A stretch of 64,000 nucleotides of DNA from Candidatus Poribacteria bacterium (GTDB taxonomy: Bacteria > Poribacteria > WGA-4E > PCPOR2b): contig OZ242351.1 of NCBI GenBank assembly GCA_965208675.1, forward strand, positions 1,408,001-1,472,000, read 5' to 3'. Position 1 is the stretch's first letter, and each line of letters opens with the position of its first letter. The translations under genes were made by a program, and so were the position numbers. This document shows positions 27,713 to 34,899 of the stretch, in pieces. The notes under the pieces were generated by a model. It had not been told where the DNA came from, ran no database searches, and saw only the letters and a list, made by a program, of their open reading frames with translations.

Positions 27713-28207
27713 TTACCAGAAATACTGCTCTGCTTCCTCTCGTTTTACGTGGTAAACGCGGCTAATCTCGGCAATGCCGCCGAGACGGTACTTTTCGGGA
27801 GCGCTCGGATGGTTTGCCGGGATACAAACTTTGTAGGAATCGGCGAGTAGTTGATAATCGCCGCCCCAAGGCGTCTCGGGGAGGGATTCAAGCAAACTCG
27901 CCCGCCAACCCTCAATCCCCGGATCAGCGATAAGGTCGTCCAATGCCTTGGGGTATTCATTGGTATATCTGTGGTACTTTTGGATGGCGATCGAAATTTC
28001 TTCGACATGCCCGTCCGCTTGGCTGACTTTGCGGTATTGCAGCCACGGGGGCAGGGCGAGCGCCGCGATGAGCACTGTTATCCCGATTAAGATGAGCAAC
28101 TGAACGCGCGTCATTCCCGTTGCGTCAAATTTGTGAAAAGATTTAAAGGGATAGGAGTTGGCATTTTTGGCCGGATTCGGGATTTTAGCGTAGGTTTTTT
28201 TGGACAT
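27713..28207 (-). CDS. Type II secretion pseudopilin GspG-like protein
   Basis: Prepilin-like G/MTRVQLL plus hydrophobic helix; YP..L.DL..DPG...W...L...P.TPWGG.Y. Confidence 0.75.
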   Translation of the reverse strand: MSKKTYAKIPNPAKNANSYPFKSFHKFDATGMTRVQLLILIGITVLIAALALPPWLQYRKVSQADGHVEEISIAIQKYHRYTNEYPKALDDLIADPGIEGWRASLLESLPETPWGGDYQLLADSYKVCIPANHPSAPEKYRLGGIAEISRVYHVKREEAEQYFW

Positions 28208-32173: not shown

Positions 32174-32315
32174 GCGTTAATTTACAGGTGTTAATCCGGC
32201 TAAAATACACAGTGACTGTAGATCGGGTACATCGGCGTTTCTAAGCGGAAAAAACCACGGCGTAACATCTCCGGTATGTCTATAACTTCATTTGATGATT
32301 GAGGATGGCAACGAA

Positions 32316-32431
32316 ACGGAAATTGGCGATTTACCGGTGAGCCGGTGTTGGTGGTTACCTTTTGTTAAAATGCACCGGCCCCCTTGTGGCGCGGGTTCAT
32401 TGAAATCGAAAGGTAACCAAGAAAAAAGATC
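32316..32431 (+). pseudogene. Decayed copy of the 5' end of the 32845 gene
   Basis: ACGGAAATTGG-CGATTTACCGGTGAGCCGGTGTTGGTGGTTACC vs ATGGAAAATGGACGATTGCGGGGGGAGACGGTGCTGGCGTACACC (31/45 by hand). Later blocks TCATTG and AGGTAACC..GAAAAA..GATC are also shared. Confidence 0.55.
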
Positions 32432-32725
32432 TTTACGTCTTTCGAGCGGATTGTTATGCGAATAATTTAGCAGTCATTATAGTAGAGATTTACGACTTTC
32501 ACAGGCGGTTAATCGAATAGAATGTTAAGGCAATCGAGAGGTGAACAGGTGAAGCATTTGTTGGAGTTCAGGGATTTTCCATCTAATGGATTTTGGGTTT
32601 GGTTAAGCGTGCGAGTAGGGAACGATCGACCGAACGAATGGTAAGGGCGAAAGCGTTAGCTCGCGATAGTTTTGGTGTCCGTGAAGACTAATTACAAATA
32701 ATTTGCGCCAAGCAGACTTTTTTGT

Positions 32726-32755
32726 TTGACATTCGGCATTTAGGTTGCGTATAAT
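32726..32755 (+). promoter_or_regulatory. Consensus sigma70 promoter with an adjacent palindrome
   Basis: TTGACA-N18-TATAAT, followed directly by AATTG-AA-CAATT (32756-32767) over the predicted start site. Confidence 0.8.
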
Positions 32756-32777
32756 AATTGAACAATTCAAATCCGTG

Positions 32778-32818
32778 AGGGGAGCGACATCCGCGAGGTG
32801 TCTCTCCCTTTTTTTTTT
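32778..32818 (+). terminator. Intrinsic terminator or attenuator between the promoter and the 32845 ORF
   Basis: GGGAG-c-GACATC (loop CGCGA) GGTGTC-t-CTCCC followed by T10. Confidence 0.85.
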
Positions 32819-32844
32819 GCGGTTAAAATCAGGAGGGTATATCA

Positions 32845-33279
32845 ATGGAAAATGGACGATTGCGGGGGGAGACGGTGCTGGCGTACACCTATTTTGAGAT
32901 GTATCGTGATGCGGGGGATGAGCGCTCATTGGAGGCGCTGAGCGGCCAAGAGGTAACCGGGAAAAAGAGATCGGTTTCGATGATTAAGAAGTGGTCGGCG
33001 CAAAATGATTGGGGCGAGCGCGTTGCGGCATTTGATGCGGAGGCGGCGCGACGGGCAGCAGACGCATTATTAAGGCGCCGGGCATCTGAAATCGAAGTGT
33101 TTATTGAAACGGATATGAAAATTGCGTCGCGGGTTCAGGCGTTGTGCCTCAATCAACTTCAAGTTCTAGAAACCAAAACGGATTTCGGGGAACTACGGCA
33201 ACTAGTATTGACATACAAAGAGGCGCGGCTATGGATGATGGAGCTCACAGGCGCGCTGGAGGAGGACGTACAGACATGA
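32845..33279 (+). CDS. Phage-like HTH protein, putative terminase small subunit-like
   Basis: RBS AGGAGG. GET..AY..F..YRD.G.ERSL....KKWS....W.ER..AFD followed by a coiled-coil segment, a pattern recalled from phage genes lying upstream of TerL. Confidence 0.55.
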   Translation: MENGRLRGETVLAYTYFEMYRDAGDERSLEALSGQEVTGKKRSVSMIKKWSAQNDWGERVAAFDAEAARRAADALLRRRASEIEVFIETDMKIASRVQALCLNQLQVLETKTDFGELRQLVLTYKEARLWMMELTGALEEDVQT

Positions 33280-34298
33280 GAAAGCGAATGAAATTTCACG
33301 AAGTGCGCTACCCCAAAATAGGGGTATCTAAGAGTGGCAATTCAGAGGAACAATCCCTTGCGATGCCAGCGTCTGCACAAGCGGCATCAGAACCTACACA
33401 TGGCGAAATCTATATTCCGAAGGAGACACCGGAGGAGATTGAAAGGCGCGAAAGGCGGGAAAATGAACTAATCAGGATTGCACGGATGCATGGCAGCAAC
33501 ATTCCGGGTCGCGAAGATGTTATAGAAGTTAAAAACGAAAGAACGCACTATGACGGAAGTCGGACGGGCTGCAATATTGAGGATAGTTTAATCATGTTGA
33601 CGGATATCAAGACGGGCTTTTTCAGGGCGTGCGTCGAAAAGAATGGCGGAGGTTGGTACGGCTATCCTAATCCACAGCATCTGGAAAGATATGGACTGAG
33701 TCCGTACGAATATAATAAGAGGAAGTTCAAGGAAGAACACATTCCGGTGGTTAAAGCACGGGAAAGCGAAAACCTTGTCGTCGGACTGATATATCGCAAA
33801 GCGTATCACCGTGCAACAGCGGTCAGTCCGGGTTTCGGAAAATCGGCTGAGATTTTGGTTCAGGAGTGTTGGTTTAAGTGTTATCTTCCATGGACATGCC
33901 TAGAGAGGGACATTTCCCGTTCGGTTGAAGTTGCCAACAACATACTGCAAGAATTGGAGCCGGAGATTACAGAACTGGCTAAGATAGTTGAGGCTAAGAT
34001 TAAAGCCGAACGAAGACTCTGCAAGGCGGCAAGTGAGTATGGCAACGATGCTCCTTTTGGACCTGATGGTGTTCCAGAATGGGTTGACCTTCCAATGCCT
34101 CAGACTCGTGACGAGTTAAACCGGTTGGGAGCGCTTTACAATGAAGATCGGGCGGCGGATCGCCGCGTCAAGGAGAAAGAGGATGCGCATGATCAGGGAA
34201 AGATAGGCCCGAAAGGGTCGTATAGCTTACCTGACGTGTGGGATAGAGAGACTACCTTGGAAGACTTACAGAAGCGGGTAGCAACAGGAAGCCCGTAG
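33276..34298 (+). CDS. Hypothetical protein (340 aa), no recognisable family
   Basis: ATGA overlap with the upstream stop and a GGAGGAGG RBS support a start at 33276 rather than 33144. Confidence 0.75.
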   Translation: MRKRMKFHEVRYPKIGVSKSGNSEEQSLAMPASAQAASEPTHGEIYIPKETPEEIERRERRENELIRIARMHGSNIPGREDVIEVKNERTHYDGSRTGCNIEDSLIMLTDIKTGFFRACVEKNGGGWYGYPNPQHLERYGLSPYEYNKRKFKEEHIPVVKARESENLVVGLIYRKAYHRATAVSPGFGKSAEILVQECWFKCYLPWTCLERDISRSVEVANNILQELEPEITELAKIVEAKIKAERRLCKAASEYGNDAPFGPDGVPEWVDLPMPQTRDELNRLGALYNEDRAADRRVKEKEDAHDQGKIGPKGSYSLPDVWDRETTLEDLQKRVATGSP

Positions 34299-34346
34299 TT
34301 TTTGAAGGATGGGTAGAGCGGAGAAAATAGTTGACTCGACAAGTGT

Positions 34347-34369
34347 CGCGATTCGGAGATCGCTCGTAC
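34347..34369 (-). repeat. GTAG-REP, family A (degenerate copy)
   Basis: CGCGATTCGGAGATCGCTCGTAC, 22/23 identical to 34758-34780. Confidence 0.8.
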
Positions 34370-34510
34370 GGGGGATTGGATTCTAGAATACCGGCGATAG
34401 GATTTGGTGTCTGAACTGAAATTCTTTGATTAAATTATGGGCTATGATTTAGGGAGCGCATAATTCTTCCGTGTTGGTACGGAAGGCGATTGGCTGCCGC
34501 TGAAGTTCCT

Positions 34511-34742
34511 GTAGGTTGGGTAGAGCGGATTCATCCAAGAATCGACTATTAAAATACCGCCCTCTCAACCTCGCCGCGTATCAAATTCCATGAATGCAGC
34601 GGCACCCATCGCTTTTCTACCATCTGGAGGTTTCAAAAGCGTTGGGTTTCGCTATGCCAAAATTGAGAAGATCATCGTAGGGAATTTGGACGACGATTGG
34701 GTGATGTGACGGTGTTGGCGCTATCCGCTCTACCCAACCTAC
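34511..34742. repeat. 232-bp REPIN/MITE-like element with perfect 20-bp terminal inverted repeats
   Basis: GTAGGTTGGGTAGAGCGGAT (34511-34530) and ATCCGCTCTACCCAACCTAC (34723-34742). A degenerate half-copy lies at about 34305-34322. Confidence 0.85.
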
Positions 34743-34757
34743 AAGAGTGGAAACGGC

Positions 34758-34780
34758 CGCGATTCGGAGATCGCTCCTAC
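34758..34780 (-). repeat. GTAG-REP, family A
   Basis: Reverse complement GTAGGAGCGATCTCCGAATCGCG is GTAG plus a GCGAT/ATCGC hairpin. A related ATAGGAGGGAATTTCGATTCCCGA lies at 34804-34827. Confidence 0.8.
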
Positions 34781-34899
34781 AGAAGGTTGTGTGGTTACAT
34801 TAGATAGGAGGGAATTTCGATTCCCGACGACGGGTTCAGTTTTTGTAGGTAGGGCAGCGCCGATTCACCGAAAATCGCCAACCAAAAAGAACCACCGTG

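Follow-up and report, generated by a model that had tools for sequence, protein, structure and literature searches.

The DNA considered here, 64,000 nucleotides from the genome of a Candidatus Poribacteria bacterium and called the window below, carries a pair of overlapping genes, open reading frames (ORFs) 1 and 2, of which ORF1 encodes a homologue of the small subunit of phage terminase (TerS) and ORF2 a protein restricted to a single genus. The pair is best read as one copy of a phylum-wide family of free-standing two-gene cassettes that stem from a phage terminase operon. This reading builds on the homology and architecture of the first protein and on its natural fusions with the second, on purifying selection and horizontal exchange, and on surroundings that are not those of a prophage. 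As to their role, we tentatively lean to the view that the partner protein keeps a docking peptide resembling that of the large terminase subunit (TerL) and that the terminase-derived cassette probably acts on phage packaging, a function that we infer. Poribacteria are uncultured sponge symbionts.

A two-gene pair with strong ribosome-binding sites (RBSs) and an ATGA overlap had been reported in the preliminary description of this DNA, and both genes and their signals were confirmed at the positions listed here. In the overlap the ATG of ORF2 starts at 33276 and the TGA of ORF1 occupies 33277-33279.

32568-32725, + strand: upstream segment, conserved and moving with the module, common to the second copy in genome G007 of the same genus
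32726-32755, + strand: sigma-70-type promoter, TTGACA-18-TATAAT, 12 of 12 matches
32779-32808, + strand: GC-rich leader hairpin, followed by a run of ten T at 32809-32818, between promoter and RBS
32831-32837, + strand: RBS of ORF1, AGGAGGG, strong, read from the sequence
32845-33279, + strand: ORF1, 144 amino acids (aa), TerS homologue
33258-33265, + strand: RBS of ORF2, GGAGGAGG, strong, inside the 3' end of ORF1
33276-34298, + strand: ORF2, 340 aa, genus-restricted protein
33276-33314, + strand: N-terminal (head) peptide of ORF2, MRKRMKFHEVRYP, a basic run and F-x-x-hydrophobic-R-Y-P, common to otherwise unrelated partner ORFs

The two proteins of the pair

ORF1 matches PHROG 6299 "terminase small subunit" (E 5.7e-14), and the same family is matched by all 33 members of the alignment of ORF1 relatives (best E 2.4e-32). 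The TerS-like character of the first gene, proposed earlier from a pattern upstream of TerL in tailed phages, is thereby upheld, and the concern that it might be an unrelated helix-turn-helix (HTH) protein falls away. Pfam, NCBIfam and PADLOC gave nothing useful for ORF1. In the AlphaFold2 model (predicted local distance difference test, pLDDT, 89.1) an N-terminal winged HTH (predicted helices 11-22, 29-32 and 44-53 with a beta hairpin) is followed by a long helical hairpin (56-111 and 114-135). A winged HTH with a helical hairpin is the usual TerS layout. ORF1 thus agrees with TerS both in sequence and in architecture, the latter predicted and not solved, and is modelled as binding DNA by its winged HTH and oligomerising by its helical hairpin. 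Comparisons at the structural level added little. Foldseek of the model against PDB gave no match at E <= 0.001 (Sf6 gp1 came at rank 21 with E 5.5), VIA-align returned generic helical hairpins only (Z <= 8.1), and a profile search of solved structures found nothing below E 0.099. The top matches in BFVD were Caudovirales proteins, some of them named TerS, all weak and none at E <= 0.001.

The distant family member P0040 matches annotated TerS genes in 13 phage records, and a homologue lies directly upstream of TerL in Microbacterium phage ValentiniPuff, in Aphanizomenon phage CL131 and in scaffold MT839647. The gene has no TerL beside it in the window, nor was one seen next to it at the 51 genome places that were read. 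Since this neighbourhood defines the terminase subunit, we call ORF1 a TerS homologue, and by its sequence a genuine homologue, but not a terminase subunit.

ORF2 has no match in Pfam, PHROG (E <= 0.01), NCBIfam or PADLOC. The ATPase and RNase H-like nuclease domains of TerL were not found in it with Pfam, PHROG and NCBIfam; in the same test, against phrog_38, genuine TerLs reach E 1e-23 to 1e-57. The earlier statement that the partner of the TerS-like gene is not a TerL therefore holds, there being no terminase match for it. Seventeen relatives at 53-84% identity were collected, and their alignment displays a conserved core in which four cysteines are invariant, and neither a Walker nor a nuclease motif. 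This alignment, together with the lack of any library match, bears out the remark that ORF2 is without Walker A/B or nuclease motifs. The label of ORFan was half right: no library family exists, but the 17 relatives do, and they are confined to one genus, where they occur in three of the four genomes (none in the 25 other genomes of the family). A phmmer search of 1.84 billion representatives added only fragments and none beyond the genus. The ORF2 model is poor (pLDDT 51.9), mostly or all helical, with uninformative VIA-align results (only Z <= 4.9), and no usable match was obtained from the ESM Atlas.

The cassette family and the head peptide

Of the 176 genomes of the phylum, 36 match the ORF1 profile, often more than once, and many of the matches are fragments. 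The survey of the cassette covers 50 of the 53 strongest matches and one fragment match. The layout is constant in the places read, a TerS-like gene being followed by an ORF that usually starts 4-50 nucleotides (nt) before the TerS-like stop codon, and TerL was found downstream at none of the 50 strongest places or the fragment. The partner ORFs that are separate, 45 in number, were grouped by BLAST into 12 clusters and range from 76 to 346 aa in length; 13 representatives have no Pfam or PHROG match. Two side observations concern neighbours of other copies. In L043 (genome G105) the ORF1 copy is cut short and followed by a transposase-like ORF, and in genome G020 an ORF with an HNH-like motif (L017 6349-6621) lies 1.4 kb upstream of another ORF1 copy, both by reading of the translations.

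What the partners have in common is found at their N-termini. Nearly all of them open with a run of lysine and arginine, and in 34 of the 45 an RY[PAST] lies among residues 1-35, usually as F-x-x-hydrophobic-R-Y-P. When partner families were compared by hhalign, only the N-terminal 18-28 columns aligned (probabilities 81% and 90%), and between the ORF2 family of the window and a third partner family nothing detectable in common was found by profile-profile comparison. A second common motif, L-x-D-I-K-T-G-F, considered for ORF2 of the window and the L017-type or fused bodies, was discarded at a profile comparison probability of 4%. In the head peptide synonymous codons are used freely for R, Y, P and F, which indicates that it is conserved as protein. 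Furthermore, in three genomes (L032, L039 and L042) a single open frame runs through the TerS-like domain, the peptide and a partner body, and such natural fusions are a classic hint that both proteins act as one unit.

A scan of metagenomes yielded one locus, the phage-like contig L072 of 3.2 kb. It encodes a D5-type primase-helicase, a TerS of the ORF1 family (42% identity) and an overlapping TerL that is open at the contig end. This terminal ORF is a TerL by its match to phrog_38 (E 9.2e-23), and its full-length relatives (477-632 aa) bear the name phage terminase large subunit in their sources. It starts with MGRATLNLWKYRYPQG (...NLWKYRYPQG), so that an R-Y-P peptide stands where the partner ORFs have theirs, and continues into the Walker A motif. 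The N-termini of TerL bind TerS in lambda and other phages. The likeness of the sequences is suggestive of partner ORFs in which another body has taken the place of the TerL motor behind a retained TerS-docking head.

The roles offered in the preliminary description (packaging interference, phage sensing, a satellite remnant, a regulator plus toxin) are all putative. On the proposed mechanism, ORF2 would have lost, or would never have had, the ATPase-nuclease body of TerL and would keep the short N-terminal peptide, with lineage-specific, interchangeable helical bodies placed behind it. The peptide may dock ORF2 on an oligomer of ORF1, by analogy with the N-termini of phage TerLs that dock on TerS, and the HTH of ORF1 would bring the complex to DNA. 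The complex could target DNA packaging by a phage with a terminase of the same family, serving as a decoy or poison of that terminase, and the outcome could be either host defence or satellite-like parasitism.

The control signals may contribute as well. A gated promoter had been suspected, and a sigma-70-type promoter with all 12 matches is indeed followed by a hairpin and ten T. From its sequence this leader element looks like an intrinsic terminator, and as it lies directly 3' of the promoter, the transcript would meet a terminator-like signal before the first RBS. In this genus the signal would hold expression down and read-through would release it. Both promoter hexamers are kept in all four copies of the genus, apart from one base in one -10 element (TATACT), and the hairpin is kept in the alignment of this genome (G000), G005 and both G007 copies.

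Several observations weigh against interference with packaging. The link between peptide and TerL comes from a single 3.2-kb contig, and when TerL-like proteins were ranked with the peptide profile, the L072 TerL came first of 33 with a weak score (residues 7-15, 3.9 bits, E 0.11). A clean R-Y-P was not seen in its closest full-length TerL relatives (P0049-P0053), the TerLs of distant phages with an ORF1-family TerS show no peptide, and 11 of the 45 partner ORFs are without R-Y-P. ORF2 has no recognisable fold or catalytic motif, and neither protein matches any family of the described anti-phage systems in PADLOC-DB v2 at E <= 1. No target or helper phage has been identified, and the docking of the two proteins, the DNA target and the effect on phages are all inferred. 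A crude scan did not find the leader hairpin upstream of most copies in other genera; as it is clear in this genus only, gating is no family-wide trait. A complex prediction of ORF1 with residues 1-45 of ORF2 scored 0.00 without controls and says nothing either way.

Selection, exchange and chromosomal setting

The 2.8 kb that separate a xanthine/uracil-type permease from ftsB-map-miaB are taken up by the pair. By Pfam, the 22 flanking ORFs (20247-46244) are all ordinary cellular or housekeeping genes; in agreement with the preliminary description, no portal, capsid or integrase is found among them. The surroundings expected of a phage satellite, that is integrase, replication genes, a regulator and att sites, are likewise not seen in these housekeeping flanks by Pfam, and the window contains no tRNA and no Rfam match. 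Scans of IMG/VR with four alignments, by a method that depends on short peptide patterns, returned no relatives, and nothing in the whole genome matched the HK97-capsid family or two portal families, which control genomes do match. The alternative that such pairs occur only inside prophages is contradicted by these results.

Genome G005 of the same genus is collinear with the window, with flanking proteins 88-99.6% identical, and offers a measure of selection. For the flanking genes the synonymous divergence (dS) is 0.11-0.34, and the ratio of nonsynonymous to synonymous rates (dN/dS, omega) is 0.015-0.135 in eight of nine genes. The corresponding values are dS 0.26 and omega 0.21 for ORF1, and dS 0.96 and omega 0.26 for ORF2. 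DNA identity to G005 falls from 91.5% to 77.6% approximately 55 nt into ORF2, and the ORF2 of this genome is nearer to the more distant G007 copy than to that of G005 (69% vs 62.5% aa identity). Together with pairwise dN/dS of 0.18-0.21 for ORF1 and 0.26-0.35 for ORF2, this pattern shows purifying selection on both genes and an ORF2 allele that was swapped by recombination. Neutral evolution, raised beforehand as a possible outcome, does not fit these ratios. In the same comparison a T2SS-G-like pseudopilin gene (27713-28207) has a dN/dS of 0.89, its neighbours 0.015-0.135.

The same data bear on the idea that the pair is an inert remnant of a decayed prophage. Its phage-derived origin and the decayed copies nearby and elsewhere in the genome are in line with this idea, but both frames are intact in all copies of the genus with omega 0.18-0.35, the promoter and RBSs are conserved, the same pairing of genes is seen at the 50 strongest places that were read in the phylum, and the fusions are kept open in three genomes. 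We consider a remnant hardly credible.

The position of the module differs between close relatives. In G007 the module (promoter to stop codon, 32709-34321) has pepA on one side and a gene weakly matching Eco57I on the other, and a second copy with a different partner, of 151 aa, lies between glmS and rsmE. This second copy (L016 7724-8421) aligns with 32568-33264 of the window at 81%. G006 has no copy of the module. Synteny with the window ends at ftsB in both G006 and G007, which places the module in a variable spot. The spot looks like a hotspot, being occupied by an AAA_16 ATPase in G005 (L010 11132-12376), by four large ORFs in G007 (L050 406-5795) and by other genes in G006. The following block adjoins the module.

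34299-34899, no strand assigned: dispersed-repeat block, 171 BLAST hits genome-wide, not part of the module, marks the variable spot beside ftsB

The block is expanded to approximately 3.5 kb in G005. The flanking repeats of the preliminary description are thus real, but with 171 hits genome-wide the block is not specific to the module and does not mark its ends. Several matches to it lie near an orphan TerL-like gene, at 1763093-1771229. A segment of 29 nt found upstream of the promoter here (32662-32690) is located downstream of ORF2 in G007 (L009 9508-9536; 96.6% identity), a placement that fits former tandem copies or a circular intermediate. A transposon was considered and rejected: no terminal inverted repeats or target duplications are present at the 32709-34321 boundary shared with G007, and the hypervariable second gene is ill-suited to a transposase.

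Could the TerS-like HTH protein have been domesticated as a transcription factor that regulates host genes, with ORF2 as its co-factor and no phage role? An HTH with an oligomerisation hairpin, purifying selection and the chromosomal setting amid housekeeping genes would all suit such a regulator. Yet the family is patchy (36 of 176 genomes, missing from one genome of the same genus), its locus differs between close relatives, its alleles are exchanged, the partner bodies are unrelated to each other and many copies are decayed. Patchiness, shifting locus, exchange, varied partners and decay argue for accessory, conflict-related genes rather than a fixed host regulator, which makes the domesticated factor very unlikely.

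Among conflict systems, a toxin-antitoxin or abortive infection module has to be weighed against interference with packaging. ORF1 would then be an HTH antitoxin and autoregulator, ORF2 a toxin restrained via its N-terminal peptide, the partner bodies swapped toxins and the ghost copies described below the decayed remains of a module that is mobile and addictive. Such a module would be expected to have overlapping genes, the first for the DNA binder, under a strong promoter of their own, as well as the patchy, multi-copy distribution with many decayed fragments, the varied partners behind one conserved first gene and the variable spot, adjoined by the AAA_16 ATPase in G005 and, in G007, by the weak Eco57I-like match. 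On the other hand, Pfam, NCBIfam and PADLOC gave no match to a toxin or antitoxin family, the second protein (125-346 aa) exceeds the usual size of type II toxins and shows no catalytic motif, and the first gene belongs to a terminase family and not to a known antitoxin family. In-frame fusions are unusual for classic pairs, although fused toxin-antitoxin pairs do exist. The link to the N-terminus of TerL would be left unexplained, and we find this alternative unlikely.

Ghost copies, orphan TerL-like genes and known systems

A ghost copy of the module had been noticed upstream of the pair, and the sequence in question is indeed a degenerate copy of the leader and the 5' end of ORF1. Further copies are scattered over the genome.

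32302-32548, + strand: ghost, degenerate copy of leader and ORF1 5' end
G000:C1 near 842778, 1909611, 2647108, 3265434, 3468825 and 4666069, + strand: ghost sites elsewhere, by BLAST or heptamer

BLAST finds six ghost copies in this genome, seven in G005, one in G007 and none in G006, which has no module; a seventh site in this genome carries an 18-nt double heptamer, and all copies here are on the + strand. The ghost core of the window consists of GGTTACC, a CCCGC/GCGGG hairpin and GGTAACC, the last of which is doubled in the other copies. In 14 copies the core GGTTACC-hairpin-GGTAACC-AAAA-GGTAACC is invariant and the flanks have diverged. Orthologous ghosts of G000 and G005 are 89% identical vs 88-91% for the surrounding intergenic DNA. 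The pairs of the ghost fold are nearly invariant and one covaries, so that covariation cannot decide on an RNA structure. From the sequences, the core may be kept by selection, e.g. as an ORF1 binding array, or by gene conversion, and the ghosts may be protein-binding sites, RNAs or relics. At L002 (G000:C1:3468775-3469180) and at L008 in G005, the 5' part of a ghost is joined to the last ~190 nt of ORF2, which marks an internal deletion derivative; both retain an open frame of 58-60 codons that matches ORF2 residues 288-337 and is conserved in the two genomes.

This genome also contains TerL-like genes, all outside the window.

G000:C1 near 1042389, 1071529, 1768789 (L103), 2115867, 3833673 and 4873083: TerL-like genes, phrog_38

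The six genes are intact, with 604-670 codons by open frame (copy 3 matches phrog_38 at E 4.2e-55), and form three groups that are 36-41% identical to each other. Five of them are preceded by an overlapping ORF of 162-205 aa, and these small ORFs are outside the ORF1 family. By plain ORF reading, no obvious virion genes lie within 7 kb of the six. Within the same distance of four of them (copies 2-5), ORF translations revealed small paralogues with an N-terminal hydrophobic segment and SPVTAQ(R/K)DKFGEIECTKL. Across the phylum, TerL-like genes are present in 35 of 176 genomes, with 5-8 copies per genome in this genus; 20 of the 35 also have the ORF1 family vs 7.2 expected, a comparison in which shared ancestry is uncontrolled. 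The resident genes were considered as carriers of R-Y-P and rejected, as the N-termini of all six fail the peptide profile, a result to be added to the points listed above against interference with packaging.

Ghosts and orphan TerL-like genes together allow another interpretation, in which ORF1 would bind the chromosomal ghost cores as pac-like sites and ORF2 would bridge to the motor of a helper phage or of a resident orphan TerL-like gene, so that host DNA would be packaged much as it is by satellites or gene transfer agents. In some pac phages, such as SPP1, the pac site lies in the region of the TerS gene. The derivation of the ghosts from the leader and 5' end of a TerS-like gene is in keeping with this, as are the core that is invariant in 14 copies with diverged flanks, the confinement of ghosts to the three module-bearing genomes of the genus, their placement on one strand throughout G000, and the six intact TerL-like genes in a genome that nevertheless matches none of one capsid and two portal families. 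The last point cuts both ways, since with the families tested no capsid or portal was found to package into. In addition, the binding of ORF1 to the core is putative, its invariance comes without a covariation signal and could be explained by gene conversion, orthologous ghosts diverge between G000 and G005 about as much as intergenic DNA, and ghosts are known in this genus only whereas the cassette is phylum-wide. We regard such packaging marks as quite unlikely.

A broader scheme can be imagined, in which Poribacteria would run a terminase-derived immune or DNA-transfer network. TerS-like binders would be joined through a TerL-type docking peptide to interchangeable effectors, from helical proteins like ORF2 to the orphan TerL-like ATPase-nucleases, and the ghost GGTAACC arrays would be the sites read; sensor and effector would then cut or block invading DNA, or mark host DNA for export. 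As a whole, we consider this scheme distinctly unlikely. The wider oddity is there in any case: these sponge symbionts have many intact orphan terminase genes, yet the capsid and portal families that were tested find no match in this genome.

Phages, satellites and gene transfer agents are the known settings of small terminases. A first likeness is to phage TerS of PHROG 6299 (phage CL131, the TerS of Geobacillus phage TP-84, gene 3 of ValentiniPuff), with which ORF1 shares the family, the HTH and hairpin, and the position as the first of an overlapping pair. In phages TerL and then the portal come next, whereas here the next gene is a non-terminase and there are no virion genes. In gene transfer agents terminase genes are kept by the host outside a phage, with TerL, portal and capsid retained. 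The presence of terminase genes outside a phage is shared with Poribacteria, but the tested capsid and portal families are not matched in this genome. Type II toxin-antitoxin systems resemble the cassette in their overlapping genes with the DNA binder first and in being mobile, patchy and often decayed; they differ in that here no known toxin or antitoxin family is present, the second protein is large and the first gene is of terminase origin.

Nearest among described systems are phage satellites, whose proteins capture or block terminases. Among these proteins are the TerS encoded by Staphylococcus aureus pathogenicity islands (SaPIs) together with Ppi, and Rpp of phage-inducible chromosomal islands (PICIs). 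The phage-inducible chromosomal island-like elements (PLEs) have the TerL-binding protein Gpi and the specifiers GpsA and GpsB, and they mimic pac (Boyd and Seed, 2024, PMC11417361). In common with satellites the cassette would have small, non-enzymatic, lineage-specific terminase binders, a TerS-like factor outside a phage and packaging-site-like copies. The satellite proteins sit in islands with integrase, replication and regulatory genes, whereas the cassette consists of two genes with no integrase in its flanks, and no sequence similarity to those proteins was seen, no search aimed at it having been made.

In listings and abstracts of the literature, neither cassettes of this kind nor orphan terminase genes of Poribacteria were found to be described, and the cassette may be an undescribed way of interfering with phages. 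From the known settings of TerS it differs as a free-standing, selected and exchanged cassette, in which a TerS homologue is coupled via a TerL-like head peptide to unrelated partners. Should it prove to act on packaging, the host would thereby encode a minimal equivalent of the terminase-binding proteins of satellites, and its head peptide would offer a short, testable docking motif for the recognition between TerS and TerL.

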